Positions 326 through 15,370 of a stretch of 64,000 nt of DNA are shown piece by piece. Source of the stretch: an uncultured Anaerolineales bacterium. GTDB taxonomy: Bacteria > Chloroflexota > Anaerolineae > CG2-30-64-16. Position numbers and translations under genes: made by a program. Each line of letters starts with the position of its first letter. Positions within the stretch are counted from its first letter, which is position 1. The stretch spans positions 54,820 through 118,819 of the forward strand of contig CAZKEF010000014.1 in the NCBI GenBank assembly GCA_964551735.1, in the 5' to 3' direction. Below the pieces are notes generated by a model. That model was given only the letters and a program-made list of their open reading frames with translations, did no database searches and was not told where the DNA came from.

Positions 326-1387
326 TCACGGCTTCCCAAATGCCTCAATCGCCTCGGCAATAACCGGCAGGCTGATCCGCCAGCGGTCCAGCGGCACGTT
401 CTCCGAGATCTGGATCTGCAAACGGCCGGTGTGGCCCGCGTCAGCCAGGATTTGGTCGGCCACGGCCCGGATTTCTGCGGGCGGCGCCAGGTGCACCGAT
501 GACGGGAAATTCAGCCACAGCCGCTTCTCGGGCCACATCGCGACCGCTTCGGCCACCGTCGTGTCGCAATCGGGTGTGGGCGTGAAGGAGTCCAGCCCGC
601 CCACCCGGCTGCGGGCGATATCCTTCCACAACGGCTTCAGCATCCCATCCATATGCGAAAAGACGGGGATTCCCCGGTCAGCCAGCATCGCGTCCAACTC
701 ATCATACAACCGCGCGCAGTATTTGCGGAAGCGCGCCGGACCGATGGCCGAGGCCGTGATGTTGTCCACCATGACGATGAACGGCGCCGGTGAGCGCCGG
801 GCGATCTCGAAGGTCTGCCGGGCGCGGCGCTCCAGCAGCTCCAGCGTGTGCTCGACATGCTCGGGCCAGTCGGCCAGATGATACGCCAGCGGCTCCAGCC
901 CCACCCATTCGATCCAGAGCTGCTGCCACGGCGTGCGCTCGATCTCGGTCTTGGGGATGCCGTCGTCGCCCAGCTCGGCGCAGTCGCGGTAGTACTGATC
1001 GTAGTTGTCCAGGATGACCGCGTCCTCCAGGTAGCTCCACAGCCGCTCGTAATCCTCCCGCGTCTCGATGAAGTGCTTGCGCGCCACCGAGCTGTCGAAG
1101 GCCGGCTCGAAGGCGCGCAGCTCGGTCAGCTCGCCGGCCGGCGTGTGGATGACGTTGCGCTCCCACTTCGCGCCGCCCTCGAAGAAGATCTCGCTCTCGC
1201 GGCGGCAGTGCGGCGTCTCAGCACGGAAGATCGAGCAGAAGCGGATGCGCCCGATGTTGCCGCGGCCGAGCACTGCGCGCACTTCGTCGTAGGGCAGCAG
1301 GATCTCGTACATGGCAAAGGGCACGCGGTCGTGCTCGCGGCCCTGGATAACGGCGAGCATCCGCTGGCGCATGGTCATGCTGTACAA
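326..1387 (-). CDS. URO-D-like (uroporphyrinogen decarboxylase / MtaA-CmuA methyltransferase superfamily) protein, paralog 1
   Basis: 353-aa ORF with the URO-D/TIM-barrel family pattern shared with 5 other ORFs in the window. Carries HMDG instead of the H-x-C motif. Confidence 0.65.
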   Translation of the reverse strand: MYSMTMRQRMLAVIQGREHDRVPFAMYEILLPYDEVRAVLGRGNIGRIRFCSIFRAETPHCRRESEIFFEGGAKWERNVIHTPAGELTELRAFEPAFDSSVARKHFIETREDYERLWSYLEDAVILDNYDQYYRDCAELGDDGIPKTEIERTPWQQLWIEWVGLEPLAYHLADWPEHVEHTLELLERRARQTFEIARRSPAPFIVMVDNITASAIGPARFRKYCARLYDELDAMLADRGIPVFSHMDGMLKPLWKDIARSRVGGLDSFTPTPDCDTTVAEAVAMWPEKRLWLNFPSSVHLAPPAEIRAVADQILADAGHTGRLQIQISENVPLDRWRISLPVIAEAIEAFGKP

Positions 1388-1414
1388 GGTAGTGCGTTCT
1401 CCTCTGGCAAGAGT

Positions 1415-1482
1415 CCTGGAATCGAGGCTTCAGCCGGTTATGTGCTCCGCCCAGAGAGACCGGCTAAAGCCTCGATTCCGGA
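1415..1482. repeat. REP-like palindromic interspersed element, family A (core GAATCGAGGCTTYAGCCGG ... CCGGCTRAAGCCTCGATTC)
   Basis: Near-identical copies at 11695-11757, 11782-11847, 12880-12948 and 28835-28897, plus a half-copy at 41929-41956. Confidence 0.7.
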
Positions 1483-2678
1483 TGATTTCCGGCCGCTTCG
1501 TTCAGTTCCGCCACCAGCCGCGCCAGCGCCGCCCCGCCGATGCCCCGTGCCGCGGCCGCCTGGCTGATCGGCTCCCAGAACGGCACGGGGCTGTCCGCAC
1601 ACGGGATGCCGTAACGCTCGAAGACTGCCCGCGTCCCCGGCCAGGCCTCGGCCACGAACACCGTGGACATGGTGGGCGTCACCTCTCCCCCTGCCCCCTC
1701 TCCTGCCAGGCGAGGGAGTACCGCTCCGCCCCCTTCCCTCGCAGGGAAGGGGGATGGGGGGTTAGGTCCCAACACCCGCGTCGCATTCCCGCCCAGGATG
1801 TCCGCCCGCACATCGTCCGGTAGCCCCAGCGCAGCGATCTCCGCCAGGAACGGCCGGAAGTCGGGCTCGGCCTGGCTTCGGGGGTAGAGCCGCAGCGGGT
1901 AGTCGGAGGCGTAGAGCAGCTTGCGGTGATCCACGCAGCGCAGCGCCACGTCGAAGATCTCGTGCGTGCGGTATTGCAGCGGCGACGCGGCGGTGTCGTA
2001 CCACACGTTGCGCAGCGTCCGCCGCACCTCCGGCATCAGCTCGTAGAAGAAGAGCCCACCGCCCCAGTGCGCCAGGATCAGCCGCAGCTCCGGGTAGCGG
2101 CTCGCCAGGCGATAATAATCGCGCAGCGGCGTCGTGGCCTTGCCCGGATAGAAGCCGCCGACCTCCTCGTTGGTGTGCAGGTTGATCGGGATCTCGTAGC
2201 CGATGCACGCCTCGGCCAGGCGCAGAAACGCGGGATCGTCCAGGCGGTAGCCCTGGCCGTAGGGGCCGAGCTCGCCCACGCCGACCATGCCGCCGTCCAG
2301 GCAGCGGGCGAGCTCGTCCAGCGCGGCCTGGCCGGCCAGCGGCTGGAGGATGGCGAACGCGCTCACCCGGTCCGGCCAGCGGCGGATGATTTCGAGCGCT
2401 TCGCTGTTGCGCGCCGCGCAGCCCTCGTGCGACCGGCGATACTCGCCCATCAGCACGACGCGATCCACGCCGGCCGCGTCCATGTGCGCGATCATGCACT
2501 CGGCCGTGGCCCAGCCCTGGAGGCTCTGCCCGCCGGGCCGGGGCGCCAGCATCTGGCCCCAGAACGGCTCGGCCGCGATGAACGCGTCCAGGTCGGCCGC
2601 CAGCGACGGCGGGGTGTAGTGGACGTGTGCGTCAATCAGCATGGTGCCCCTCCACCGGTTCGTCCGGCGCTGATGCAC
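1464..2678 (-). CDS. Amidohydrolase-2 family metal-dependent hydrolase with C-terminal DUF1858-like extension; ORF contains two interspersed palindromic elements
   Basis: The N-terminus has IDAHVH, then the family motifs HTNE, ILAHWGG and YASDYP. The C-terminal ~70 aa FERYGIPCADSPVPFWEPIS resembles DUF1858. A ~110-nt GC-rich palindromic element (1681-1790) is translated in-frame, and the stop codon TAG lies inside a REP-like element (1415-1482). Confidence 0.6.
   Translation of the reverse strand: MHQRRTNRWRGTMLIDAHVHYTPPSLAADLDAFIAAEPFWGQMLAPRPGGQSLQGWATAECMIAHMDAAGVDRVVLMGEYRRSHEGCAARNSEALEIIRRWPDRVSAFAILQPLAGQAALDELARCLDGGMVGVGELGPYGQGYRLDDPAFLRLAEACIGYEIPINLHTNEEVGGFYPGKATTPLRDYYRLASRYPELRLILAHWGGGLFFYELMPEVRRTLRNVWYDTAASPLQYRTHEIFDVALRCVDHRKLLYASDYPLRLYPRSQAEPDFRPFLAEIAALGLPDDVRADILGGNATRVLGPNPPSPFPAREGGGAVLPRLAGEGAGGEVTPTMSTVFVAEAWPGTRAVFERYGIPCADSPVPFWEPISQAAAARGIGGAALARLVAELNEAAGNHPESRL
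1681..1790. repeat. GC-rich double-hairpin element, family E, in-frame inside a CDS
   Basis: ~85% identical to 3878-3990. Contains palindromes CCCTTCCCTCGCAGGGAAGGGG and CTCTCCTGCCAGGCGAGGGAG. Confidence 0.65.
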
Positions 2679-3162
2679 GGGCGCGCGTAACCTTGCGCAG
2701 CGCGACAGCCAGCGAGTCGCCGGGCTGGATGTCCACGTCGGCCAGGATGCGCGTCACGTAGGCTTCGATCTCGTTGAAGCCGCTGGCGCGGGCCACTGAC
2801 ACCCGATGGTTGCCATCGGAGACAAAGTAGACGCTGCCCACCTGAAAGACCTCGATGGGCGGCACCCCGATGAACTCGGCCATGGTCACATCAATCCGCA
2901 CCCAGCGATCCCGATCCACCGCGCCGCGCGGGTGGAAATGCCGCGTGAAATCCTGCGACCGGCCCGTGCTGCCCACGATCCGGTCGAGTGGGATGGACTG
3001 CGGCTGAGGCAGGCGCAACCGGCCGTAGTCGCGCAACGCGGCCATCAGGGTGTTGAACGGCAGCAGGTCGGCCGGCCGGCCCGTCAGGCGCGCGCAGAGA
3101 TCCTCGCGGATCGCTGCCCAGCGAGCTTTGAAAAACAATTGCCGGCCGACGTAAAAGCTCAC
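2632..3162 (-). CDS. Hypothetical protein with ParB/sulfiredoxin-like domain
   Basis: Motif IEVFQVGSVYFVSDGNHRVSVARASG resembles the ParB/Srx DGxHR..A core. Start codon uncertain. Confidence 0.4.
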   Translation of the reverse strand: MSFYVGRQLFFKARWAAIREDLCARLTGRPADLLPFNTLMAALRDYGRLRLPQPQSIPLDRIVGSTGRSQDFTRHFHPRGAVDRDRWVRIDVTMAEFIGVPPIEVFQVGSVYFVSDGNHRVSVARASGFNEIEAYVTRILADVDIQPGDSLAVALRKVTRARASAPDEPVEGHHAD

Positions 3163-3180
3163 TTTGCTCCTGCCTGCATC

Positions 3181-4412
3181 TCACCCAAAAACGGTGCGCA
3201 TCCGCTCGCAGTAATACTGCACATTCTCCCACCGGGCATCTGGCGGGATGCGGTGGTCGGGGCAGGGGATGTAGCCGCCCAGGTCCACCAGTGGCCGGAG
3301 CCGTTCGATCTCGGCGTCAATCGCCGCGTAGTCGTAGGCAAAGACCTTCTTGTCCATGCCACCCACGCCCCGCAGCGCCCGGCCGTACTGCGCCCGCCAC
3401 GGCGCGATGCTGGCGTGCCAGGTGCCGACCTCGATGGGAAACATGGTGTTCACGCCGTTCTCCAGCCAGATCGGCAGCAGCTTATCAATCATACCGTCGC
3501 AGTCCAGCGACACGATGCCGATGCCGTGGTCGTTCAGCAGCCGCGTGATCCGCCGGTAGTGCGGGCCGACCAGCCTGGCAAACAAGCGCGGGTTCACCAG
3601 CGGGCCGTTCTTGAAGCAGATGTCCTCCCAGAAGTGACCGTAGTCGAAGGGGATGCCCGTTGCCAGCACCGCAGTCGTGCCTTGATAGCTCAGCTCGGCC
3701 ACGGTCTCGATCATCTCCTCCAGCAGGGCGGGATCATCCGCGGTCAGATAGCTTAACCCCACCACGCCCAGCCAGTTGCGGATGACGCCGAAGAGGCTGC
3801 CGCACCACAGGCCGCGTGGGAACGAGGGCTCCTCGGCCAGCAGGACCTCCCGGCCGCCCCCGTCGAAGCGCAGGGACCTCACCCCCCTGCCCGCCCTGCG
3901 GGCGTCTCCTGCGAGGAGAGGGGGAATCTGCTCCCCTTCCCTGGCAGGGAGGGGGCTGGGGGGTAGGTGAACCCTTGCGCGCCCTAACCGGCTTTCGGTG
4001 TACCGCAGCCGCGGCCGGAAGATGCGCTCCCACTCGACACGCCCCTTCAGCAGGTGGTCAATCTCCGCCGGGATCGAGACGACGTCATCCTTCTCCAGCA
4101 CGATGGCGCCATCCCTGTCGAGCACGTGCCGCGCGCCATCAGGCAGCTCGGCGACCACGCGGCGGCGGAAGGCGGGCTGCAAGCCCAGGTACGGGCCGAA
4201 GACGCCGCCCCAGCCGAAATCAAAGCCCAGGCGCTCACACAGGGCGCGATCATAGGCGTTGTTATCGTACCAGCCGGCGGCCAGGGTCTTGCTGATGTGC
4301 CCCTCGGCCGCCCACTTCTCCAGCGTCTCGTCCCAGTAGCCGAAATGGACGATCGGCAGCCGGTCGTAGGGCTGATAGTTCAGGATCGCCAACGTCTGCT
4401 CGCGGTTGTTCA
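3181..4412 (-). CDS. URO-D-like family protein, paralog 2, with in-frame palindromic element insertion
   Basis: The likely true start is the internal ATG giving MNNREQTLAILNYQPYDRLPIVHF, a typical URO-D-like N-terminus. The N- and C-terminal halves are family-like, separated by an in-frame GC-rich palindromic element (3878-3990) encoding PPSPLPAREGEQIPPLLAGDARRAGRG. Confidence 0.6.
3878..3990. repeat. GC-rich double-hairpin element, family E, in-frame inside URO-D paralog 2
   Basis: Paired with 1681-1790. Same orientation and same reading frame (PPSP[FL]PAREG). Confidence 0.65.
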
Positions 4413-5975
4413 TCGTATGCTCTCGCTGCTTGCAGTCATCCTGCCCTTGTCTGCGGCAGCGGCGTTGGCGCGAGCCGCGGTCACGTCCGCTGCCATCTGC
4501 TCGACCGTCTTCACGTGCAAACGCGCAGCGCCACGGTAGTCGCGCGTTCGAACTCGCGTGCCATTGCGCTCGGCCTCCGCCAGGCCCGCGGCGGCCTGGG
4601 AAATCTCGGCGGCGTATTGCGGAAGCCATTGGGCCTCTGCGACCAACATCTCATCGGTCATTTGCCAAACCTCCTCCGGGTTGCACACCGCGCCGACCAG
4701 GGGATCGTGTAACATGGCCTGCTTGAGCAGCAGCACATCACCCCGCACCGCGGCCTCCATGCCCATCTCCTGAACGCGCACGCTGGCTGCGCAGGTGGCC
4801 GCACACGCCAGAGGCAAAGCGCCCACCACCGGCATGTTGATGCCGGTCCTGTCCACATAGCCAGGAATCTCGACCACGCACCCGTCAGGCAGGTTGGTGA
4901 TGTGGCCACGGTTGATCACATTGAAATGGCCTCGGTAGATGCGACCGGTCTCCAAGGCCTCGATAATGTAGGAGCCGTGCTCCTCGCTCCGATTGGCTGG
5001 GGTGATCGCGGGCGGCTCCTCGGCCAGCCACTGTGGGAAGTCGGTCTCGAACCAGTGCCGTCCCTCGGAACACACGCGCAGATAGCCGCCGGATTCGCCA
5101 TTGATCCAACTCGAAAGATCGATCCATTGCCCGATCTCTTCCGGCCGCTTCCGGTACCACGGCAGGTATTCGCTCAAGTGGCCGTTAGATTCGGTGCTGT
5201 AGTAGCCGAAGCGTCGCAGGACGTCCACGCGCACCTTCTCGCTCTGCCGGTACTCCGGGTGGCGCCCGAAAAGCTCGGGCAGAAGCGGGATCATGTCCCG
5301 CCCGCGCCATTCCGCTTTGACGAACCAGGTCTGGTGGTTGATGCCGGCGGCGACGACGTCAACCTCGCGGCGGTGCATTTCGTAGTCCGGCGGGATGAGG
5401 CCCTGCTCCTTCGCCCACATCTCCACGCAGCGCGTGATCTGCCAATGCGCGCCCTGCACGCCGTGACACAGCCCCACCGTGGGCACGCCACCGTACCGAT
5501 TGCAGGCCCATGTGTTCATCGCCATCGGGTTCGAGTAATTCAGGAGGAGCGCTCCCGGCTTGGCAACTTCGCGCATATCCCGACAGATGTCGAGCAGCGC
5601 CGGAATGGTGCGCTGCGCATAGAACAGGCCACCAGCACAGATCGTGTCGCCGACGCATTGATCCACCCCGTACTTGAGCGGAATGTCTATGTCGAACTGG
5701 AAGGCCTCCAACCCTCCCTGGCGGATCGTGCAAATCACGTAATCGGCGTCCGCGATGGCCGAGCGGCGCTCCAGCGTGCTGATGATCGTTGCCGGCAGCC
5801 CGTTCGCTCGGATGTCACGTTCGCAAAGCTGGGTTACCATGTCCAGGTTGGCCTGGGAAATGTCCATCAGGGCAAAGGCAGTGTCGGCCAACTCCGGCAC
5901 TGCGAGGATATCACGCATCAAGCGGCGCGTGAAACCGATGGATCCTGCGCCGATCATCGCGATCTTGATGGGCAT
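4410..5975 (-). CDS. Glycoside hydrolase family 4 (NAD/Mn-dependent alpha-glucosidase/alpha-galactosidase type)
   Basis: N-terminal Rossmann motif MPIKIAMIGAGSIGF, 521 aa, and the conserved GH4 core (CHGVQG, NHQTWF). Confidence 0.8.
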   Translation of the reverse strand: MPIKIAMIGAGSIGFTRRLMRDILAVPELADTAFALMDISQANLDMVTQLCERDIRANGLPATIISTLERRSAIADADYVICTIRQGGLEAFQFDIDIPLKYGVDQCVGDTICAGGLFYAQRTIPALLDICRDMREVAKPGALLLNYSNPMAMNTWACNRYGGVPTVGLCHGVQGAHWQITRCVEMWAKEQGLIPPDYEMHRREVDVVAAGINHQTWFVKAEWRGRDMIPLLPELFGRHPEYRQSEKVRVDVLRRFGYYSTESNGHLSEYLPWYRKRPEEIGQWIDLSSWINGESGGYLRVCSEGRHWFETDFPQWLAEEPPAITPANRSEEHGSYIIEALETGRIYRGHFNVINRGHITNLPDGCVVEIPGYVDRTGINMPVVGALPLACAATCAASVRVQEMGMEAAVRGDVLLLKQAMLHDPLVGAVCNPEEVWQMTDEMLVAEAQWLPQYAAEISQAAAGLAEAERNGTRVRTRDYRGAARLHVKTVEQMAADVTAARANAAAADKGRMTASSESIR

Positions 5976-5981
5976 CTGAGT

Positions 5982-7064
5982 TTACTCCTGATATGACCCC
6001 AGCCGCTTCGCCATTTCGACAATCGCGCGAAAAGCGGCCAGGCTGACGCTGGAGGGCACCGAATGATCGGACGAGAAGATGTAGCCGCCCGATTCCTTGA
6101 GCGCCGGCACGAGGCGCTCCATCTCAGGCCGGACGAGCGCCGGATCATCCCACAGCACGGCGTTGATCCCGCCGTGCAGCACCAGATCCTTGCCGAACTC
6201 CCGCTTCAGCGCCAGCGGGTCCATCCCGGCTTTCACTTCCAGCGGATTGAGCGCATCGAGCCCCATCGAGACCAGCTCCGGGACGAACGGGCGGATGTCG
6301 CCGCACGAGTGTAGGTGCGCCTTGATCCCCTTGGCGTGCGCCCAATCAATCGCCCGCTGGTGGAACGGCTTGAGCACCTGCCGGTACTTGCGCAACGAGA
6401 AAAACTGGTGTCCCTTATAGCCCATGTCATCCCACCAGAAGACGCTGTCGAAGCGATACCCCGCGTCCCACACGCGGTCCCAGAGCGCCAGGCTGGTCTC
6501 CAGCATCGTCTCGAAAACATCCATCAGCCAGGCGGGATCTTCGACCAGGTTCATCAGCACGCGCTCCGTGCCCAGCGTCCAGGAATGGGTGACGTCGAAC
6601 CCGAACCAGAGGGCCGCCTGCAGCCAATCCCCGCGCGCCTGCCAGATCGGATAGTTCGCGGCCAGGTACGCCCAATCAATGCGATCAGGGCTGGTCGTGA
6701 TGCGCTTCTTGGCCACCTCCCAGCTCGCCCGATCCACGATGGTGAAATCGAGGAACTCCGGTGTGGAAGCCTCATGCTTCCACTCGCGCATGGTCACGCC
6801 CCAATCGCTGGTGTAGATCCTGTACTCGTCCGTTTCTTCCAGCGTCCGTTTTTCATACTGCGGCGAGCCGTCCACGAAGAGCAGGTTGACGCGGTCAATA
6901 TCGAAGTAATCCTCGAAGTCAACCCCCTCGGGCAGCCCTTCGCCGCGCCAACGCTCAATCGTGGCATGCCACGGCACGTCGGTGATGGGGACGCGGTCCG
7001 CCGCGCGGTGCTCGAACATGCGCGTGAAGCGCTCTTTGGTTGTGAGTTTGGGTTGAATCATCAT
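5982..7064 (-). CDS. URO-D-like family protein, paralog 3 (H-x-C motif present: HLHSCGD)
   Basis: 360-aa ORF, family-like throughout, with an HSC motif. Confidence 0.65.
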   Translation of the reverse strand: MMIQPKLTTKERFTRMFEHRAADRVPITDVPWHATIERWRGEGLPEGVDFEDYFDIDRVNLLFVDGSPQYEKRTLEETDEYRIYTSDWGVTMREWKHEASTPEFLDFTIVDRASWEVAKKRITTSPDRIDWAYLAANYPIWQARGDWLQAALWFGFDVTHSWTLGTERVLMNLVEDPAWLMDVFETMLETSLALWDRVWDAGYRFDSVFWWDDMGYKGHQFFSLRKYRQVLKPFHQRAIDWAHAKGIKAHLHSCGDIRPFVPELVSMGLDALNPLEVKAGMDPLALKREFGKDLVLHGGINAVLWDDPALVRPEMERLVPALKESGGYIFSSDHSVPSSVSLAAFRAIVEMAKRLGSYQE

Positions 7065-8323
7065 GACAGGCCGACCACCCGTCCCTCGCGCCGCGCCTGC
7101 TCGGCTGCAAACACCATCAGGTGCGTCTCCAGCGACTCGGCCGGGCCGGAGAGGATCAGCGACGGGTCGCCCGTGCGCAGCGCGCCGACGAAGTGCGTCA
7201 TCAGCGCCAGGTCTCCGCCGCCGTGGCCGCTCAGAATCGAGCCATCGCTGGCGGTCTCCGCGTCGATCCGTTCCGTCGTGTCGGTCATGAAGTCGTACAC
7301 CTCGATGAACCGCCCGTTGCCGTAGAGCTCCCCGCGCGTCCCGAAGATCCGCGTCTCGCGGTCGCGCTGGCGGTTGAAGGCGGTCATGGTGAAAGAGGCC
7401 GTCGCGCCGCCTTCGAACTGCATGGCGACCACCTGGTGGTCCACCACGTCGTTGTCGCAGGCGTAGACGCAGCGGCCGTACGGCCCCGTGCGCAGCGCGG
7501 CCAGCAGCCCCGCCTCGCTCACGTCCGGCGTCAGCACGTTGAGCGGCCAGCCGGTGATGCCGCGCCGCAGGCCGGTCAGGTAGATGCGCGGCGCCGAGTA
7601 GGGACAGGATGTCTCAACGGCGCAGTCCAGGCAGCGGTCGGCCGCGCCGGCGGGCCGGTTTTCGGGCCGGAAGTGCAGCAGGCTGCCGAAGGAGGAGACG
7701 AGCGTGCAGGGCCGGCCCATGATGTGCCGGAGCCAATCCAGGTCGTGGCACGATTTCGCCAGCAGCATGGAGGACGACTCGGCCTCGTTGCGCCAGTTGC
7801 CGCGCACGAAGGAGTGCGCCTGGTGCCAGAAGCCCACCGGCTCCAGGTGCTGGATGCTGGCGATCTCGCCCAGCCGGCCGGAGTCCACGATCGCCTTGAC
7901 CTTCTTGGTGTAGGCCGTGTAGCGCAGCACGTGACACACCGCGAACATGGCCCCGCTGGCCTGCGCCGCGGCGGCGATCTGCCGGCACTCGGCCGCGGTC
8001 GGCGCCATCGGCTTCTCCAGCAGGATATGGTAGCCGCGCTCCGCGAAAGCGACCGCCGGCTCGGTGTGCAGCGCATCGGGCGTGGCGATGATGACCGCAT
8101 CGGCGAAGCGGGGCTGCGCAGCGGCCTCCCGCCAGTCGGCGTAAACGTTACCGGCCGGGATGCCGTGGCGGGCAGCCAGCGCCGCGCGGTAATGCTCGCG
8201 CGGCTCGGCCACGCCCACCACCTGCGCCTGGTCGGGATGCCAGTGCGCGTACTCGGCGTAGTTGGCCCCGCGGCTGCCGGCGCCAATGATGAGCAATTTG
8301 ATCGGTGACATCAAGATACACTC
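7061..8323 (-). CDS. Gfo/Idh/MocA-family NAD(P)-dependent oxidoreductase (in-frame with upstream GT1, no intervening stop)
   Basis: The internal start MSPIKLLIIGAGSRGANYAEY is preceded by GAAGGAGTG. Gfo/Idh/MocA N-terminal Rossmann fold, and the C-terminal domain is family-like. Confidence 0.65.
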   Translation of the reverse strand, partial: ECILMSPIKLLIIGAGSRGANYAEYAHWHPDQAQVVGVAEPREHYRAALAARHGIPAGNVYADWREAAAQPRFADAVIIATPDALHTEPAVAFAERGYHILLEKPMAPTAAECRQIAAAAQASGAMFAVCHVLRYTAYTKKVKAIVDSGRLGEIASIQHLEPVGFWHQAHSFVRGNWRNEAESSSMLLAKSCHDLDWLRHIMGRPCTLVSSFGSLLHFRPENRPAGAADRCLDCAVETSCPYSAPRIYLTGLRRGITGWPLNVLTPDVSEAGLLAALRTGPYGRCVYACDNDVVDHQVVAMQFEGGATASFTMTAFNRQRDRETRIFGTRGELYGNGRFIEVYDFMTDTTERIDAETASDGSILSGHGGGDLALMTHFVGALRTGDPSLILSGPAESLETHLMVFAAEQARREGRVVGLS

Positions 8324-9598
8324 CTTCTGCAGGCTAGTTTCCACCCGCGCCACCACCGCCACGGCACGGGCGATGCCATCCTCAGCCCGAATCTTGCGCC
8401 CCAAATCGGCCGCGCGCCGGCGCATCTCCGCATCGGTCACGGCCCGGTGAATCGCGGCCGCCAGCCGCTCGGCCGTGAGCTGCTTGCGCGGGATCGGCGC
8501 CGGCCCGACCCCCAGGTCGGCCACGCGGCGGCCCCAGAACGGCTGATCCCCGAAGAAGGGCACGACGACGGACGGCACACCCGCTCGCAGCCCGGCCGCT
8601 GTGGTGCCCGCGCCGCCGTGATGCACCACGGCCGCCATGCGCGGGAAGAGCCAGGCGAAGGGCGCGGTTTCCAGCATGAAGACGGAATCCGGCAGGTCAG
8701 CCACCTGCAAGCCGCCCCAGCCGGCCAGCACCACCGCCCGCTCCCCCGTTTGCCGCAGCGCGTGCACGATCAGGCCGGCGGTTTGGGCCGGGTTGCTGAT
8801 GCTCATGCTGCCGAAGCCGATGTAGACGGGCGGCGGGCCGGACTGCAAAAACGCTGCCAGGGTCGGCGGCGGCGTCCAATCTTCCCCCGCATCCAGGAAC
8901 CAGTAGCCGGTGACGTGTACCTCTGGTCCCCCGTCGTCCGGCGGCGGGATCACGGCCGGGCTGAAGCCGTAGAGCACCGGATGCCGGCAGAAGCGCTCGC
9001 CCCGGAACGGCCCGGCCAGGGGCGACGGCGGCAGTCCCAGCACCTTCTGGCGCACCAGGCGGTCGGCGGCCCGAAACGGCTGCCACATCATCTGCCGCGC
9101 CAGGTGATAGGAAGGACGGTTGAGGGCCCCGCCCAGCCAGGACGGCAGCCCCGGCAGCAGGAAGCTGGGATAGGCGCGGGTCGGCGTGAAGGGGATGTAG
9201 TGCGCCTGGATGAACGCCAGGTCCAGCTTCTCGGCCAGCGCGTAGCCCACGAACAGCCCGCCGACGCCGGCCAGCACCGCGTCCATACCGCGGCAGGCCG
9301 CCAGCCCGCCCTCGGCCAACTCCACCGCGCCCCGCTCCGCCTCCCGCGCCATGCGCGCCAGGATGGCGGCGAAGTTGCCCCGCTCCAGCAGTGCGCTCAT
9401 CTCCTGGCCTTGGGCGACCTGCTGCGAGTCGCCCACAATCGGCCAGAACTCGACCCCGTGCGCCGCGGCCAGGCCGGCGAAGTTGCCGTGCGTCACCAGT
9501 CGCACGGCATGGCCGGCCGCAGCCAACCCCTTGCCCAGCGCCAGATACGGCTCGACGTCGCCGCGGCTGCCCGGCGCAACGATTGCGATACGCATTAT
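8324..9598 (-). CDS. GT1-family UDP-glycosyltransferase (MGT/OleD-like)
   Basis: MRIAIVAPGSRGDVEPYLALGKGLAAAGHAVRLVTH is an N-terminal GT1 motif, and the C-terminal half carries the PSPG-like UDP-sugar motif (HHGGAGTTAAGLRAGVPSVVVPFFGDQPFW). The ORF track joins it to the downstream oxidoreductase as one 907-aa ORF. Confidence 0.65.
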
Positions 9599-9599
9599 G

Positions 9600-11666
9600 T
9601 CACCCTCGCCCTGCAAACAGCGCCAGCAGCGCCGGACCGCGCACGAAGACCGGGATGCGCGCCAGCGGCGCGTCGGCGGTGATGGTGACGCCGCCCACCT
9701 GCGCCGCGCCCGTCCAGGCATCGTACCACACCGCCCCCGCCGCCGCATCATCGTAGGGGCGGGGTTCCCCTGCCCTGGCTGCATCGGCGGTCTGCGGCCG
9801 CGGGCAGGGAGACCCCGCCCCTACGAGCGCCGGCAGGTAGACCGAGCGGCCGGTCGCGCCCTGCCGCAAGACCGGCGCCACCAGCACATCCGGCCCGAAC
9901 ATGAACTGATCCTCGACCTCGTAGCAGGCCGGATCATCGGGGAAGTCGAAGAAGAGCGGCCGCATGGGCGGCGCGCCGGTCGCTGCAGCAGTCGCCATCT
10001 GCGCCAGGATATACGGCTTCAGGCGCTCCCGCAAGAACAACAGGTCGCGGATGATAGCGTAGGCCTCGTCGCCGAACGACCAGGCCTCGTTGGGGCCGCC
10101 GGCGTCCCACCCCACCGTCGGCTGGCGCATCCCGTGCAGCCGGAAGAGCGGGCAGAAGACGCCGTACTGGAACCAGCGCACGATCAGCTCGCGGAAGATC
10201 GGATCGGCCGGATCGCCGCCGTGGAAGCCGCCGATATCGGTCGTCCACCACGGGATGCCGCTGAGGCCGATGTTCAGCCCGGCGCGTACCTGGGCCCGCA
10301 GCGCCTCGAAGGTGGAGGGGATGTCGCCCGACCAGACCGCCGCGCCGTAGCGCTGGCTGCCGGCCCATGCGGAACGGCAGAGGGTCACGACGTCCGCCTC
10401 CCCCTCGGCCTTCATGCCTTCCCAGAACGCCTGCTGGTGCAGCAGCGGGTAGAGGCCGGCCACCTCCAGCCCGTTGCCCAGGTGATAGCGCAGGTTCTCG
10501 TGGTCGGGCGGATAGACCTCCGGCTCGCACGCGTCCAGCCACCAGACCCTGACGCCGTGGCGATAGTAGCCCTCGCGCACGCGCTCCCAGATGAAGCGCC
10601 GCGCCTCCGGGTGGGTGGCGTCGTAGTAGCGCAGGTGCACCGGGCCGTTCGCACCCACATCGGTGAACGCCATGTGGCTGGGCTGGCCGCGCTCGGCGCG
10701 CACCAGCAGGCCACGGCGGTCCATCTCCTCGTAGGTCTCAGCGGCCGGGTTCACTGCGGGCCACACGGACACCATCAGCTTGACCCCCAGGTCGTCCAGC
10801 TCACGCACCATCGCCGCCGGATTGGGCCAGGCGGCCGGATCGAAGCGCCACTCGCCCATGCGGGTCCAATGGAAGAAGTCGGCCACAATCACGTCCAGCG
10901 GCAGGCCGCGGCGGTGATACTCGCGCGCCACGGCGAGCAGTTCCTCCTGGCTGCGGTAACGCAGCTTGCACTGCCAGAAACCGACCGCCCACTCGGGTAG
11001 CACAGGCGCGTGGCCGGTCGCGTCAGCGTAGTGGGTCATGATCTCGGCGCAGGAGCCGGCCGTGACCCAATAATCCAACTGGCGGCTCGCCTCGGCAACC
11101 CAGCGCGTGCCGTTGCAGCCCAGTTCCACCCGGCCGACCGCGGGGTTGTGCCACAGGAAGCCGTAGCCGCGGCTGGAGACCAGGAAGGGGATGCTGACCT
11201 CGGTGTTGCGGTGCCACAGATCCACTACGCAGCCCTTCTGATCCAACAGGCCGTGCTGGTGCTGGCCCAGGCCGTAGAAGCGCTCCCCGACGGCGGGCTG
11301 GAACTCGGCCGAGATGTGGTACAGGTCGCTGCTGGCCGGCTTGAACCCGCGCGCCGGCGGCCGGATGAAGCGCGGCGTTGGCTCGGCCAGCAGCAGCGCG
11401 CCGGTGGCCGTATCGGTAAAGCTGATCTGCCCCTCGACGGTCACGTCGGCGCGCAGCCGGCCAACCCGAATAGTGGCAATCTCCGCCCCGACCGTGATCT
11501 CGGCCGCGACCGGCGCAGGCGCCAGCAGCGCGCCCGGCAGCTCATCGCATACTTCGATGCCCTGGGTGGCGCGCACGCGCAAGCTATCGGCGCCCCACGG
11601 CTCGATGCGCACCGTCTCATGTCCGCCCCGCCACAGGAGGGCGTTTGGTTCGTGTGTAAATGACAT
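9600..11666 (-). CDS. Glycoside hydrolase family 31 (alpha-glucosidase/alpha-xylosidase, YicI-like)
   Basis: GH31 catalytic region WWLDACEPE and a conserved N-terminus MSFTHEPNALLW. The C-terminal region contains an in-frame ~70-nt perfect hairpin element (9752-9825). Start chosen at the internal ATG (11664-11666) just downstream of a REP-like element. Confidence 0.75.
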   Translation of the reverse strand: MSFTHEPNALLWRGGHETVRIEPWGADSLRVRATQGIEVCDELPGALLAPAPVAAEITVGAEIATIRVGRLRADVTVEGQISFTDTATGALLLAEPTPRFIRPPARGFKPASSDLYHISAEFQPAVGERFYGLGQHQHGLLDQKGCVVDLWHRNTEVSIPFLVSSRGYGFLWHNPAVGRVELGCNGTRWVAEASRQLDYWVTAGSCAEIMTHYADATGHAPVLPEWAVGFWQCKLRYRSQEELLAVAREYHRRGLPLDVIVADFFHWTRMGEWRFDPAAWPNPAAMVRELDDLGVKLMVSVWPAVNPAAETYEEMDRRGLLVRAERGQPSHMAFTDVGANGPVHLRYYDATHPEARRFIWERVREGYYRHGVRVWWLDACEPEVYPPDHENLRYHLGNGLEVAGLYPLLHQQAFWEGMKAEGEADVVTLCRSAWAGSQRYGAAVWSGDIPSTFEALRAQVRAGLNIGLSGIPWWTTDIGGFHGGDPADPIFRELIVRWFQYGVFCPLFRLHGMRQPTVGWDAGGPNEAWSFGDEAYAIIRDLLFLRERLKPYILAQMATAAATGAPPMRPLFFDFPDDPACYEVEDQFMFGPDVLVAPVLRQGATGRSVYLPALVGAGSPCPRPQTADAARAGEPRPYDDAAAGAVWYDAWTGAAQVGGVTITADAPLARIPVFVRGPALLALFAGRG
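9752..9825. repeat. ~24-bp-stem perfect hairpin element inside the GH31 C-terminal coding region; its 5' end GTAGGGGCGGG matches family C
   Basis: CGTAGGGGCGGGGTTCCCCTGCCC ... GGGCAGGGAGACCCCGCCCCTACG seen directly. Confidence 0.55.
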
Positions 11667-11694
11667 AGGATTACCCGAGATAGGATCATGCTCT

Positions 11695-11847
11695 GGCATC
11701 GAGACTTTAGCCGGTTTGTTGCTCAACGCGAGTGACCGGCTGAAGCCTCCATTCCATCGGATCGCGATGTTGCAGGATTCCTGGATTCGAGGCTTTAGCC
11801 GATTGGACTCGCAACTCAGAGAGACCGGCTGAAGCCTCGAATCCGGG
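11695..11847. repeat. Two tandem family-A REP-like elements immediately upstream of the GH31 start
   Basis: Direct comparison with the other family-A copies. Confidence 0.7.
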
Positions 11848-12981
11848 CTATCTCGTCTCCAGCGCCGCGCGAATCATCGCAAAATACCCCGCATCCGGCA
11901 CGTAATCCGGCACCGAGTTGCCCGTGCCCAGGGCATAGCCGCCGCGGCCGGCCGTGCGTTCCAGCATGGCGCGGGCGCGGGCGTAGACCTGGTCGGGCTC
12001 GGCCCGACAGACGAAGTCCACATCGATCCCGCCGATAATGGCGAAGCGGTCATGGTAGCGTTCATAGGCCTCTTCAACCGGCAGGATGGTGTCCTCGTAA
12101 GAATGGCGGGCATCAATGCCAATGTCGGCCATGTCACCCAGGATGCGCTCGAAGTGCCCGCACGAGTGCAGGATCACTGGCTTGCCGGCCGCGTGGATGG
12201 CCGCGACGATGCGCTTGTGCCACGGGAAGACGTACTGGCGCATCTGACGCGGGGAGAGCATGGTCTGCGTCTTGAAGCCCCAGTCGTCGTTGTCAATGCA
12301 CGCGCCCACGGCGGGATGCGCCGCGGCGATCTCATAGTAGCGCACCAACGTCTCGCCCACGGCCTCGAAGACGCACTCGACCAGGTCCGGGTCGTCGGCC
12401 AGCAGCAGGCAGAGCTTCTCGAAACCCATGATCTCAGTCACATTCTCCAGCACGCCGCCCGGCCCGTAGGCGATCAGCTTCATCCCGTCCGGCATTACCC
12501 CAGCCAGCGCGTCGAAAATACCATAGTCGGCCGCCTCGACATCCGGCCAGCGGTAGGCCTCGTAAGAGGGCCAATCCACGATCAGCCCGCCGGCGTTGAG
12601 CGACACCGTGCGGCCGGTGAAATCGCGGCCGGTGGGGAAATCGAAGCCCGGCACGCGCACGTTGCTGAAATCATAACCGGCGCGGTAATAGGCCTGCAAG
12701 ACCCGGCGCTCGGTGCGATACGGGCTGTCGGGAATGGAAGCCAGCGGCGCCAGCCGCTCGTGCAGCCGGTCGTTGAGGAAGAACTCGAACAGGGTAGGCC
12801 GCGCAGGGACCTCCCGGCGCAGGACGGCCAGCAGGTTGTTGAAATCAGGCCTGGGGGCCGGCAAATCGTACCAGTCATCCTGGAGTCGAGGCTTTAGCCG
12901 ATCTGTCTCCTCAAGGGAAGCAACCGGCTGAAGCCTCGATTCCGGATATTCTGCTGACACACTGGAAACCCCATCAATCAT
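11848..12981 (-). CDS. URO-D-like family protein, paralog 4 (H-x-C: ILHSCGH); N-terminal region reads through a REP-like element
   Basis: GGAGGGG SD 6 nt upstream of the ATG at 12979-12981 (MIDGVSS). Residues PESRLQPVASLEETDRLKPRLQ are encoded by REP element 12880-12948. A downstream in-frame TTG is an alternative start. Confidence 0.6.
   Translation of the reverse strand: MIDGVSSVSAEYPESRLQPVASLEETDRLKPRLQDDWYDLPAPRPDFNNLLAVLRREVPARPTLFEFFLNDRLHERLAPLASIPDSPYRTERRVLQAYYRAGYDFSNVRVPGFDFPTGRDFTGRTVSLNAGGLIVDWPSYEAYRWPDVEAADYGIFDALAGVMPDGMKLIAYGPGGVLENVTEIMGFEKLCLLLADDPDLVECVFEAVGETLVRYYEIAAAHPAVGACIDNDDWGFKTQTMLSPRQMRQYVFPWHKRIVAAIHAAGKPVILHSCGHFERILGDMADIGIDARHSYEDTILPVEEAYERYHDRFAIIGGIDVDFVCRAEPDQVYARARAMLERTAGRGGYALGTGNSVPDYVPDAGYFAMIRAALETR
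12880..12948. repeat. Family-A REP-like element, in-frame within the 5' end of URO-D paralog 4
   Basis: Sequence identity to the other copies. Translated as PESRLQPVASLEETDRLKPRLQ. Confidence 0.65.
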
Positions 12982-14161
12982 GGTAACCCCTCCATGCGCG
13001 GGCAGTCTCATACATCGCCGCCAAGTTGACGGCCGGGGTGCGCGGGGCCAGGTTGTTGGCTTCGCGCAGCACGAACCGCCCGCCCTCGCAAACGCCCGAA
13101 CCCAAGATGCGCGCCGTCTCGGCCCGCACGTCCTCCGGCGATCCATCACGCAGGATCATCACCGTCGGGCCGCCGTGGATCGTCACGTCCGGCCCCAGCT
13201 CGCGGCGGAGGCGGCCGTGATCCACCGGGAAGCCGGTCTCGAAGTCGTTGACGCCCAACTCATCCTTCAACCAACGGAAGTGCCGGGTCGCGTCGCCGCA
13301 CAGGTGGATCTTAACCTGCTCTGCGGTCGTAATACCCGCCTTCAGCTTGCGGTAGACGGGCAACATGAACTCACGCGCCATCTTGACCGAGATCAGTTGC
13401 AGGGCGTCATCGGCGAACCACATAGTATCCGGCGGATCCGGCAGCCCGAAGAAGCGGGCATGGGCGCGCACGCGAGCAATGGTGACTTCGGTGAGGAAGT
13501 CGAGCAGCGTGCGCGCATAGTCCGGGTCCTCGTAGAAGTCAGTGAACAACTCATGACCGCGCAGAGATACAGCCAGCGTCAGCGGGCCGCCGCTCCACCA
13601 GCCGAACGGGTCAACCTGCACCGGCCAACCGCGATACTCCGGCTCACGACGCAACCGCTCCTGCCACCGTTCGAGCATCTCGTGCGCCCGCCGGTACCAG
13701 CCCCTTCGACTTCGCTCAGGACAAGCGCCGGTCAGTGGATCGGGCAGGCCCGCGTCGAACAGCGCGTTCTTGCGATCGCCGGCCAAGATGGGTGGCGTAT
13801 CGGGCACCTGGCCCGGCAGAAAAAGCACCGGTGCGCCCAGATACGCGGCCTCGTCGAAGTTTTGCAGGTCAATCCGCACCAGCCACGCCTCTCGGTTCGG
13901 CGGCATCCCGACCGGATCATCGCAGAAGGGCGCGATGTGCTCGGCCCGCCAGGCCGCCGCGCGTAACTGGAAGTCCAGCATCGTATCGGCGTCCGTGCAA
14001 TAGCGCTCCCAGTCCACCGCACCGCCGGGGTTCACCGCATCGTTGTAGATGAAGAACTGCGTGGCCGTGCCCAGCGCGACCGGCGGCCGGATCGGCGCCC
14101 TCGCGTTGAACGCGTCCCAAACGGCCTGGGCTTCGGCGTTGTGTTCTTCACTGGAAGTCAT
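12974..14161 (-). CDS. URO-D-like family protein, paralog 5 (H-x-C: KIHLCGD, distal Cys SGVCEGG)
   Basis: Start MTSSEEH is preceded by GGAGCATCC. Family-like throughout. Confidence 0.65.
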   Translation of the reverse strand: MTSSEEHNAEAQAVWDAFNARAPIRPPVALGTATQFFIYNDAVNPGGAVDWERYCTDADTMLDFQLRAAAWRAEHIAPFCDDPVGMPPNREAWLVRIDLQNFDEAAYLGAPVLFLPGQVPDTPPILAGDRKNALFDAGLPDPLTGACPERSRRGWYRRAHEMLERWQERLRREPEYRGWPVQVDPFGWWSGGPLTLAVSLRGHELFTDFYEDPDYARTLLDFLTEVTIARVRAHARFFGLPDPPDTMWFADDALQLISVKMAREFMLPVYRKLKAGITTAEQVKIHLCGDATRHFRWLKDELGVNDFETGFPVDHGRLRRELGPDVTIHGGPTVMILRDGSPEDVRAETARILGSGVCEGGRFVLREANNLAPRTPAVNLAAMYETARAWRGYHD

Positions 14162-14275
14162 GGATGCTCCGTGGTGCGTATTGCGTATTACGTACTGCAC
14201 GCTGGCCCGATCTCCCTCGTCCCCCGTGTGTCATCGGTCGTCAGTCATCCGTCGTCGGTCGTCATTCGTCGTCCG

Positions 14276-15370
14276 TCACTCCCCCAACAACCCCTCCGCC
14301 CGAAACGCCTCAACGCACGCTGCGGCCTGCTCAGGGGTCAGGAAGCCGTCGTCACCGGTCAGGCAGAAGACGAAGCCCCTGCCGCCCAGCTCGCGCGCGA
14401 TGGTGAGCGCGCCCTCGGGCGACACGAAGAGCTGGCACAGCTTACCGCCGTCGCGAATGCGCTTCAGCAGCGGCAGCCACTCCTCCGGCGGCGGCGCGCC
14501 GTCGCCGGGGATCCACTGGATGCCCCGCAGCCGCTCGATGGTCAGCAGCATGTCCAGGTGTTTGATCTCGCCCTTGCCGTCCAGGTGGTAGAACGCATAG
14601 TCCAACGCATCACAGCACGCGGTCAGGTCCGGCAGGATCAGCCGCTCGAACATGCGCGGGGAAATCATGTAGGAGAAATCGCTTTGCAGCATGTAGCACG
14701 TGCCCGGCGCCCACAGCGGGCTCCAGCAGGAGGTGCCGCGGTTAGTAGCGGCTACCAGGCGGTGGAACTCATCGTAGTAGCGCAGCCAAAGCGGCGTGAT
14801 CTGCCGCGCCAGGCGGTCCACTTCATCCGGCGCGTCGTATAGATCGAGCAGGAGCTGCTGCGTGTCGCGCAGCGAGGCCAGGATGTCCAGGTTACCGCCC
14901 AGGTCGGTATGGCCGATCACCACGCGATTCCCCCAACGCTCGACTGCGGCGCGCGTGACCGCGGCGACGCGCTCCCACCAGGGGTTCTCCAGCGTGAACG
15001 CCAGGTTCGTCTCGGCCAGCGACGTGATGCCGCTGGGGTAGAACCATGTAGTGCCCTCGGATGCGCCAACGGGTGAGCCGAGAAACGCGGCGATGACGCC
15101 CGGCCCGAAGTTGGGCCACCACTTGGGGAACGCGTCGCCGGCCCACAGCAGCGCATCCATCTCCGCGGCGTAGTGGTCAATCACCGCTTCGGCCGACATG
15201 CTCAGCGGGAACCCGGTGATGTGATCCCACCAGGCACCGCCGCGATCCCGCCGTCGAGCCATGGCCTCGATCACGACCAGCGGCCGATCCAGTTCACCCT
15301 GCCACCAGGCGTTCCAATTGCGTGCGTTGCGAGCCCAATCCTCGTCATTGAATTGCAGGTAATGTTTCAT
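14276..15370 (-). CDS. URO-D-like family protein, paralog 6 (no H-x-C; YHLDG)
   Basis: 364-aa ORF, family-like. Repeat family C element lies in its 5' region (15387-15440). Confidence 0.6.
   Translation of the reverse strand: MKHYLQFNDEDWARNARNWNAWWQGELDRPLVVIEAMARRRDRGGAWWDHITGFPLSMSAEAVIDHYAAEMDALLWAGDAFPKWWPNFGPGVIAAFLGSPVGASEGTTWFYPSGITSLAETNLAFTLENPWWERVAAVTRAAVERWGNRVVIGHTDLGGNLDILASLRDTQQLLLDLYDAPDEVDRLARQITPLWLRYYDEFHRLVAATNRGTSCWSPLWAPGTCYMLQSDFSYMISPRMFERLILPDLTACCDALDYAFYHLDGKGEIKHLDMLLTIERLRGIQWIPGDGAPPPEEWLPLLKRIRDGGKLCQLFVSPEGALTIARELGGRGFVFCLTGDDGFLTPEQAAACVEAFRAEGLLGE

Follow-up and report, generated by a model that had tools for sequence, protein, structure and literature searches.

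An open reading frame in which a GT1 glycosyltransferase (GT) continues without a stop codon into a complete Gfo/Idh/MocA oxidoreductase (Gfo) raises the question of whether the locus encodes one bifunctional enzyme or two genes that have run together. We addressed it in the 64,000-nucleotide stretch of DNA that carries the frame (hereafter the window). The passage of the GT1 frame into a complete Gfo, described in an earlier note on this DNA, is borne out by our reading of the sequence and by the Pfam scan, which places all four domain regions in one frame (Table 1); moreover, the GC3 phase is unbroken over 7125-9435, with no frame switch. The note had spoken of a 907-aa ORF, and a minus-strand ORF of this length is indeed listed in the window (9784..7061), but the biologically meaningful fused CDS comprises 844 aa, the remaining 63 N-terminal codons being upstream, non-coding and overlapping the 3' end of the GH31 gene. 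The GT starts at ATG 9595-9593 (MRIAIVAPGSRGD), so that the start at 9598 proposed earlier lies one codon too far upstream; this ATG is separated by 4 nt from the GH31 stop (TGA 9602-9600). The Gfo starts at ATG 8311-8309 (MSPIKLLIIGAGS), and the sole in-frame stop of the GT–Gfo frame is TGA 7063-7061. The ATG of the downstream URO-D-like gene overlaps this stop as ATGA, indicating translational coupling. The operon is carbohydrate-related (GH31 and GH4 are present according to Pfam), its other junctions are all canonical, and neither an Rfam scan nor a tRNA scan of the window gave any hit.

Table 1. Features of the GT–Gfo locus; window positions unless residues of the 844-aa fusion are indicated (Pfam residue numbering carries an offset of +1).
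Feature	Position	Strand	Basis or remark
GH31 glycoside hydrolase gene, upstream neighbour	9600..11726	-	Pfam Glyco_hydro_31 domains; 5' end set by longest ORF, real start possibly 8-23 codons downstream
GT1 (GT-B fold) CDS, MRIAIV...ARVETSLQ, complete, without own stop	8327..9595	-	Pfam PF03033, PF06722, PF00201
Gfo/Idh/MocA oxidoreductase, 416 aa, complete	7061..8311	-	Pfam PF01408, PF22725, PF02894
URO-D-like gene, downstream neighbour	5982..7064	-	
Window-specific block of ~1.3 kb	8325..9615	-	blastn against L167-L171; absent from all four upstream-reaching relatives
Junction GTG GAA ACT AGC CTG CAG AAG GAG TGT ATC TTG, before Gfo ATG	8312..8344	-	Sequence
Gfo leader: Shine-Dalgarno AAGGAG (8326-8321) and 9-nt spacer	8312..8326	-	Homology to stand-alone Gfo leaders
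Glyco_transf_28	residues 4-144		Pfam
EryCIII-like_C/UDPGT	residues 258-402		Pfam
GFO_IDH_MocA	residues 433-555		Pfam
GFO_IDH_MocA_C	residues 568-843		Pfam

The N-terminal half belongs to CAZy family GT1 (GT-B fold), since both Rossmann-like halves exceed the Pfam gathering thresholds (PF03033, 50.1 bits for a cut-off of 26.2; PF06722, 70.5 for 31.7; PF00201, 35.8 for 19.5). The GSRGD loop, HHGGAGT, the D/E-Q motif and FFGDQPFW are kept, and every invariant column of the family is retained in an alignment that includes the window sequence. The best relatives are 68-70% identical at the amino acid level, the top match among 5.8 billion proteins standing at 68%. All of the 45 closest GT orthologues have a stop at this place, -1 to +20 residues from the 'ARVE' position. 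The GT falls short of the NCBIfam equivalog cut-offs for the rifamycin-inactivating Rgt (145 vs 800), the macrolide GT MGT (78 vs 260) and OleI (40 vs 700). It has the full GT-B architecture in common with the catalytic domain of sterol 3-beta-glucosyltransferase (UGT51/Atg26, PDB 5xvm/5gl5; 237 bits with 5xvm over residues 4-415) and with the vancomycin-type GT1 enzymes GtfA/B/D (96-130 bits); unlike them, it is of the bacterial stand-alone type of ~420 aa, stop-less and joined to an oxidoreductase. The link to the sterol enzyme is one of sequence, made of the similarity to 5xvm/5gl5 and of JGI names transferred to relatives. Note that some GT relatives in the databases (P0002, P0008) show visibly frameshifted tails.

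The C-terminal half is likewise a recognizable member of its family: its Rossmann and C-terminal alpha/beta domains score above the Pfam thresholds (PF01408, 83.6 bits for a cut-off of 24; PF02894, 48.6 for 22.9; PF22725, 56.6 for 27), and GAGSRG and LLEKP are conserved. It falls into a subfamily with near-invariant cysteines (Cys227/230/236/281/285), all conserved motifs of which are kept; this five-cysteine-cluster subfamily is structurally uncharacterised. The window Gfo shares the Rossmann GxGxxG and EKP motifs with YjhC (6o15), glucuronide 3-dehydrogenase (8tdi), the C-glycoside 3-oxidase DgpA (7xr9), levoglucosan dehydrogenase (6a3f) and 1,5-anhydrofructose reductase (2glx), with scores of 47-69 bits and a likeness mostly within the first 150-220 residues; compared to these characterised enzymes, the subfamily has a C-terminal domain larger by ~100 residues and the Cys cluster. 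The Gfo also lies far below every NCBIfam equivalog cut-off, namely those for IolG (76 vs 355), UDP-GlcNAc 3-dehydrogenase (74 vs 450), levoglucosan dehydrogenase (62 vs 650), BT_2158 glycoside 3-dehydrogenase (38 vs 750) and xylose dehydrogenase Gfo6 (46 vs 350). Thus, a substrate is not transferable from the characterised Gfo enzymes, and the name 'sugar dehydrogenase' previously proposed for this half is not established. The ~190 orthologues, up to 89% identical, are all stand-alone proteins of 414-424 aa, which share the start position (the same Met/Val) with the window Gfo. The neighbours of 48 orthologue loci are heterogeneous (fucosidase, SIS-domain proteins, M20 peptidase, other Gfo genes), and inspection by eye revealed no GT that recurs beside Gfo in these loci.

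The junction itself contains no in-frame stop. It carries an off-frame TAG (8336-8334) and an off-frame TGA (8313-8311, in TGATG) within 25 nt, so that inserting or deleting one base would be enough to recover two normal coupled genes. According to a manual frame analysis, one additional base in the A-run at 8340-8338 yields ...ARVEN-stop, 22 nt ahead of the ATG, and one base fewer yields ...ARVELACRRSVS-stop, overlapping the ATG. The arrangement typical of coupled genes, in which the upstream stop lies within or adjoins the downstream Shine-Dalgarno sequence (SD) or start, is therefore absent from the junction as sequenced and present after a 1-nt correction. Neither does the junction look like a matured linker, from which the internal ribosome-binding site and start would have been lost: AAGGAG, the 9-nt spacer and the ATG are all kept, which confirms the earlier observation that the SD and ATG of the oxidoreductase sit inside the GT frame. 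This leader, translated here as K-E-C-I-L, makes up the last five 'GT' codons (AAG GAG TGT ATC TTG) and matches the leaders of stand-alone Gfo genes in related contigs (GGGAGTGCAGTTTC followed by ATG in L170, AAGGAGATCCACCTCC followed by GTG in L167, GAGGAGACT followed by ATG in L171). The predicted chimera would read ...VETSLQKECILMSPIK... across the junction. We discarded programmed frameshifting or recoding as an explanation, because the junction has neither an in-frame stop to be bypassed nor a slippery heptamer.

The origin of this arrangement becomes apparent from five related metagenome contigs (L167-L171, ~76-92% nucleotide identity), which span Gfo and which were found through a junction-spanning protein query and the contigs encoding its matches, not through the collection scans. 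Four of them reach upstream of Gfo. They display the same operon (URO-D, URO-D, GH31, Gfo, URO-D...) without the GT: in 4/4 cases, the gene that precedes Gfo is either GH31 or one additional URO-D gene, and in none is it a GT. Blastn homology to the relatives, with both flanks covered, extends up to ~9615, five codons before the GH31 stop, and resumes at 8324-8305; the intervening window-specific block (Table 1) consists of a new 5-codon GH31 tail with its stop, the 4-nt spacer and the whole GT1 CDS. The genes on either side find relatives at 75-94% amino acid identity, as against 68% for the best match of the GT: GH31 is 79-81% identical to its counterparts in L168-L171, Gfo 88-89% to the stand-alone proteins of L167-L169 and the downstream URO-D-like protein 89-94% to its orthologues in L168-L170. 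At the nucleotide level, the identities of Gfo are 86-88% between the window and each relative and 83-92% between one relative and another; in this unrooted matrix of a single gene, the window is nested within the relatives, so that a single gain of the GT is most parsimonious. On this sequence comparison, the GT is best described as a lineage-specific insertion and not as a conserved neighbour of Gfo. Altogether, the GH31–Gfo spacer occurs in four states among the compared sequences: empty, filled with a whole URO-D gene, with a 28-codon URO-D remnant, or with the GT1 gene. At the block we saw no transposition or target-site signature, neither inverted-repeat ends nor mobile-element genes, and the sole repeat spanning its boundary (D7, 23 nt, 78%) encodes the N-terminal Gly-loops of the two proteins, IVAPGSRG and IIGAGSRG. 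That the adjacency of GT and Gfo is lineage-specific goes beyond what the earlier note could see from the window.

A fusion established as a bifunctional enzyme should recur with a conserved architecture, and no such recurrence was found. An exhaustive phmmer search over 1.84 billion representatives returned no GT1–Gfo fusion among its best 150 matches, and word-indexed searches of 5.8 billion proteins gave no protein matching both halves. One of these word-indexed searches listed GT matches only and is uninformative on the Gfo half, whose 85-93% relatives it missed. Scans of genomes and metagenomes with the whole fusion gave 160 loci among the matches listed, at no more than 70% identity, none with both halves or with the window neighbourhood; over two collection scans, GT and Gfo were together or adjacent in none of 163 loci among the matches listed. 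Neither the 844-aa fusion nor the adjacent URO-D-like protein had an exact match on look-up, no protein at least 90% identical was found in the protein searches, and literature searches gave no relevant work on GT–Gfo/Idh/MocA fusions or on the URO-D/GH31 cluster. Some matches, L011 among them, seemed to cross the junction but proved to be spurious upstream extensions. The window Gfo subfamily does tolerate N-terminal fusions (P0129, P0134). The closest analogues, P0129 and P0270 (804-807 aa), are uncharacterised GT4–Gfo fusions from marine metagenomes that, like the window ORF, join an N-terminal GT-B to a Gfo from the Cys-cluster subfamily; this Gfo and that of the window are 46% identical across the whole domain. 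Their GT belongs to a different family (Glyco_trans_4_4 and Glycos_transf_1); in contrast to the window junction, theirs is a real linker without SD/ATG (and without Met in P0129), and in contrast to the window singleton, their gene recurs on 15 contigs, monocistronic-looking and in an unrelated context.

If the fusion were a genuine, selected enzyme, its GT1 part would glycosylate a small-molecule acceptor and its Gfo part would oxidise or reduce the substrate or product sugar, with channelling of the intermediate. The integrity of both domains, with all family-invariant residues kept, and the carbohydrate-related operon would suit such an enzyme, and the independent linker-bearing fusion of another GT-B family to the same Gfo subfamily (P0129) hints, in the Rosetta-stone sense, that this type of Gfo can cooperate with glycosyltransferases. 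Against it stand the lack of a second GT1–Gfo example in the searches above, the separation of GT and Gfo in the loci listed and in the four upstream-reaching contigs, the heterogeneous, GT-less neighbourhoods of the Gfo orthologues (by eye), and the near-absence of a linker: what stands in its place is an intact ribosome-binding site with its ATG, which is the mark of two genes and not of a matured fusion. We consequently regard this explanation as improbable. There is a similarly slim chance that the sequence is correct and captures a new bifunctional enzyme at birth, a horizontally acquired GT1 welded by insertion onto a Cys-cluster Gfo; together with the marine GT4–Gfo, it would then suggest that glycosyltransferases and this Gfo subfamily have repeatedly become functional partners and indicate a glycoside or nucleotide-sugar as the substrate of the latter. 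The earlier note had itself taken orthologues that always encode two separate proteins as an argument against a genuine fusion, and this is what the stops of all 45 GT orthologues and the stand-alone Gfo orthologues amount to; its proposal of a bifunctional GT–dehydrogenase thus finds no support, while its other proposal, two coupled genes with the GT stop lost or miscalled, fits these observations and the retained leader.

Whether the stop was miscalled or lost is a separate matter. The two genes might be normal in the organism, a single-base indel in the consensus having taken the GT stop out of frame, most likely at the A-run, where the true sequence would be ...GTG GAA AAC TAG, then 22 nt with the SD, then ATG. 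Errors classically occur at an A-run beside an off-frame TAG, a +1 or -1 correction within 33 nt gives the canonical stop/SD/start layout found at every other junction of the operon, every GT orthologue has its stop here, and such indels are common in assemblies, as seen in the related long-read-style contigs L170 and L171; the tails of P0002 and P0008 are frameshifted as well. However, AAA is a short homopolymer. Furthermore, unlike L170 and L171, the window is otherwise free of frame breaks: 10/10 orthologous genes over ~10 kb are intact in one frame and the GC3 phase track is clean over 64 kb. The per-base indel rate is accordingly low and leaves a small chance that an error would hit this particular 30 nt, which counts against a random indel error. 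We therefore hold an artefact to be possible but rather unlikely.

We favour, with a probability of about 0.55, the view that the fused ORF is a by-product of the lineage-specific insertion, young and unconserved, and that Gfo is probably still made from its own start. The ancestral operon would have been ...URO-D, URO-D, GH31, Gfo, URO-D..., and the Gfo ribosome-binding site would have lain in a short spacer. A GT1 gene from an unsampled donor, to which the nearest relative is 68-70% identical, would have landed in this spacer, with its own Shine-Dalgarno sequence and ATG immediately behind the GH31 stop and with no 3' stop codon, so that the GT frame would run through the retained Gfo leader into the Gfo ATG. 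If the stop is truly missing from the DNA of the organism, ribosomes starting at the GT would yield the 844-aa chimera, the intact SD and ATG would probably still permit separate initiation of the 416-aa Gfo, so that both products would be made, and both domains may be active. Fusion of adjacent genes by stop-codon loss or frameshift is a general phenomenon in operons, and the window resembles it in that two coupled same-strand genes have become one ORF in a single lineage, with the internal SD/ATG kept and no linker. It differs in that the gene upstream has itself been inserted recently; the fusion may thus be as old as that event and not stem from a later point mutation.

The GT1–Gfo ORF is a singleton, nothing suggests that the fusion has been selected for, and one single-base indel separates it from two ordinary coupled genes. 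It should not spread through annotation as a 'bifunctional glycosyltransferase/oxidoreductase' family. If the fusion were nevertheless real and active, it would provide, with GT4–Gfo, a weak functional lead for the large and widespread five-cysteine-cluster subfamily. The insertion scenario would show how an imprecise insertion can directly give rise to a fusion, and the GH31–Gfo spacer is a tidy illustration of how newly arriving genes can land in an operon spacer.

The GT1 glycosyltransferase (GT) and the Gfo/Idh/MocA oxidoreductase (Gfo) share a single uninterrupted ORF, 907 aa long from its first ATG according to the ORF listing. The earlier note's claim of one stop-less GT–Gfo frame is borne out by the sequence, by Pfam, which places Glyco_transf_28 and EryCIII-like_C/UDPGT in the first half and the GFO_IDH_MocA N- and C-domains in the second, all above gathering thresholds and in the same frame, and by a GC3 phase unbroken over 7125–9435. 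Its extent needs correction: reading of the DNA places the true GT start at an ATG (MRIAIVAPGSRGD) preceded by GAGGG, 4 nt downstream of the GH31 stop TGA (9602–9600), and the 63 codons 5' of it merely overlap the 3' end of GH31; therefore, the meaningful fused CDS comprises 844 aa and begins at 9595 rather than 9598. Its first in-frame stop overlaps the ATG of the next gene as ATGA.

At the junction, the coding strand (8344 down to 8303) reads GTG GAA ACT AGC CTG CAG AAG GAG TGT ATC TTG/ATG TCA CCG, with no in-frame stop. The Shine-Dalgarno (SD) sequence and ATG noticed earlier inside the GT frame are indeed present, a strong AAGGAG lying 9 nt 5' of the Gfo ATG (MSPIKLLIIGAGS). Stops occur off frame, TAG (8336–8334) in one frame and TGA (8313–8311), which overlaps the Gfo ATG as TGATG, in the other. 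Alignment with relatives shows a complete GT domain and no linker between it and Gfo. All of the 45 closest GT orthologues have a stop, −1 to about +20 residues from the "ARVE" position, and Gfo orthologues start exactly at the position of the Gfo start here, with Met or Val. The last five "GT" codons, AAG GAG TGT ATC TTG, correspond by homology to the untranslated leader sequences of stand-alone Gfo genes (see table); it is therefore the ribosome-binding site of Gfo that the GT frame reads through here. Contig L167 carries the closest Gfo relative (89% aa) and, apart from that gene, only 62 nt upstream, too little to show what precedes the gene or whether its ORF is likewise open; these 62 nt contain a stop in none of the three frames, the Gfo frame included. 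The N-terminal Gly-loops of GT and Gfo (IVAPGSRG and IIGAGSRG) form a 23-nt direct repeat, 1293 nt apart, with an exact core of 11 nt (GGCAGCCGCGG); it probably reflects motif convergence and could serve as microhomology for GT deletion.

Coordinates of the features discussed (window positions unless a contig is named)
Feature	Position	Strand	Remark
Fused GT–Gfo ORF	9784–7061	minus	
GT start ATG	9595–9593		
Gfo SD AAGGAG	8326–8321		
Gfo start ATG	8311–8309		
Stop TGA of fused ORF	7063–7061		
Gly-loop repeat copies	9561–9583; 8268–8290		
Gfo Cys cluster	7457–7633		
GH4 glycoside hydrolase gene	4410–5975	minus	second window-specific block, about 5989–4420
URO-D/GH31/Gfo/Amidohydro_2 cluster	326–15370	minus	
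Segment before Gfo GTG	L167:1–62		leader AAGGAGATCCACCTCC/GTG
Gfo leader	L170		GGGAGTGCAGTTTC/ATG
Gfo leader	L171		GAGGAGACT/ATG
GH31–Gfo spacer	L169:5897–6000		URO-D remnant
URO-D gene	L168:4859–6001		
MerB-family gene	L001:7517–7969		
MerB fragment	L170:7470–7721		
P0129 (804 aa)	L164–L166:5001–7415		GT4–Gfo fusion
L170, L171	ENA ERZ25039459 contig_7120, contig_19372		frame breaks in most cluster genes

Four metagenome contigs (L168–L171) show synteny with the window along more than 10 kb, at about 76–92% nt identity. They share the order LacI, orf364, URO-D, URO-D, GH31, Gfo, URO-D, orf391, ..., Amidohydro_2, URO-D, UbiD; the window and these contigs have in common a conserved cluster of four to five URO-D-like paralogues, GH31, Gfo and Amidohydro_2, to which the LacI regulator and UbiD are added in the relatives. 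We found no paper on this cluster. The operon context in the window (GH31, GH4, Amidohydro_2, five URO-D-like paralogues), with LacI in relatives, points to catabolism of some glycoside. GT is absent from all four contigs, as is GH4, whose tail extends about 94 aa past the Pfam GH4_C domain. Homology between the window and its relatives runs through GH31 to about 9615, is lost over about 9615–8325 and returns 0–13 nt before the Gfo ATG; the block missing in the relatives consists of the GT gene and a new five-codon tail and stop of GH31 (...ALLALFAGRG-stop in the window versus ...ALLALFQA/QS-stop). The GH31-to-Gfo gap measures 104 nt in L169, 72 nt in L170 and 7 nt in L171, while L168 carries a URO-D gene there. 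The L169 spacer contains a 28-codon in-frame URO-D remnant (start and 3' end, MNHHLQAVTLFENILAMYEAAGEYGSF-stop) where L168 has the whole gene. With four states among the sequences compared (window GT, L168 URO-D, L169 remnant, short L170/L171 spacers), this spacer is a rearrangement hot spot.

By Gfo nt identity, the window (86–88% to each of L167–L171) is nested among these contigs (83–92% mutually; Kouleothrix MAG, 75%), so parsimony favours one GT gain over several losses. Because the nearest GT relative among the matches listed reaches 68–70%, against 75–94% aa for relatives of the flanking genes, GT may well have been acquired from outside the sampled clade. The GC3 of GT (0.89) is in line with that of its neighbours, so composition adds no signal. 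Immediately upstream of P0001, the closest GT relative among the matches listed, is a gene of the MerB family, and a MerB fragment lies just downstream of the L170 Gfo; this may be coincidence or the trace of a shared mobile cassette.

An exhaustive phmmer search of 1.84 billion cluster representatives returned no protein with both halves among the best 150 matches (at least 340 bits), each covering one half. A junction-spanning query (GT C-domain and Gfo Rossmann domain) gave no match to both parts; it retrieved stand-alone Gfo proteins of 416–424 aa, 84–93% identical across the queried part, and those of L167–L169 are 88–89% identical to the window's Gfo over their full length. A word-indexed search with the whole protein (845-aa query) matched GT alone (best 68%) and nothing with both halves, but it returned N-terminal-half matches only and missed Gfo relatives 85–93% identical. 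Similarly, the two genes lay together within the flanks in none of the at least 160 loci listed from GTDB species genomes and JGI metagenomes, a list that did not include the syntenic loci. Negatives from a two-domain query in a word-indexed search or from such scans are unreliable. The closest real analogue is P0129, which with P0270 (804–807 aa) joins a GT4-type glycosyltransferase (Glyco_trans_4_4 and Glycos_transf_1) to a Gfo from the subfamily that the window's Gfo belongs to (46% identity); its junction, in contrast, has a real linker and no Met. This type occurs on 15 marine contigs, TARA ocean assemblies among them, and we found no literature on it. Judging from these proteins, a GT-B enzyme and this Gfo subfamily have been fused independently at least once, yet neither with GT1 nor in the window's lineage.

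We favor the view that the fusion is real but accidental and young (probability roughly 0.55). The mechanism is the ordinary fusion of adjacent genes by an absent stop; what sets this case apart is an upstream partner that was itself only recently inserted. A consensus error removing the GT stop is less probable; in its favour, GT/Gfo is the sole stop-less junction, an A-run lies directly beside the off-frame TAG, and a one-base change in either direction mends the frame. An additional A in the run 8340–8338 would give ...ARVEN-TAG, then 22 nt including the SD, then the Gfo ATG; loss of one base would give ...ARVELACRRSVS-TGA overlapping this ATG; both are textbook coupled-gene layouts. Several observations oppose such an error. 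Across about 10 kb, each of the ten window genes with an L168/L169 orthologue has one unbroken frame, the 64-kb GC3 track has no visible frame switch, and the remaining junctions follow canonical layouts: GH31 TGA, 4 nt and ATG; Gfo/URO-D ATGA; and those of GH4, which unlike GT is cleanly bounded (upstream URO-D TAA, 6 nt and ATG; GH4 TGA overlapping the next ATG as ATGA). Unlike the window, L170 and L171 break frame repeatedly (orf364, both URO-D genes, GH31, Gfo), which looks typical of unpolished long-read assemblies; database proteins derived from them are fragments (e.g. P0275, 263 aa).

A selected bifunctional enzyme is improbable. GT–Gfo is not an established bifunctional family, the architecture being unconserved and the junction unmatured, and the earlier suggestion of a genuine bifunctional fusion found no support in the orthologue comparison or the searches. 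The main consequence is annotation caution.

The operon is probably transcribed as one tightly coupled message. As sequenced, ribosomes on GT would fail to terminate and pass through K-E-C-I-L into Gfo, producing a 92-kDa chimera; a separate 46-kDa Gfo would probably also be started from its own intact SD and ATG. Since all family-invariant residues are kept in both halves (GSRGD, HHGGAGT and FFGDQPFW in GT; GAGxRG, LLEKP, SCHDxD, GHGGGD and the Cys227/230/236/281/285 cluster in Gfo) and N-terminal additions occur in other members of this Gfo subfamily, both parts of the chimera are plausibly active. The GT1 enzymes that GT resembles are of the sterol/flavonoid type (237 bits to UGT51), but it scores below all NCBIfam equivalog cut-offs; Gfo is far from every curated equivalog. 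Its best PDB match reaches 69 bits, mainly over the Rossmann part, and no solved structure covers the Cys-cluster region. This cluster (C227-x2-C230-x5-C236 ... C281-x3-C285) is 93–100% conserved in 140 sequences, which suggests a metal or Fe-S site; a true chimera would offer a small functional hint for this subfamily.
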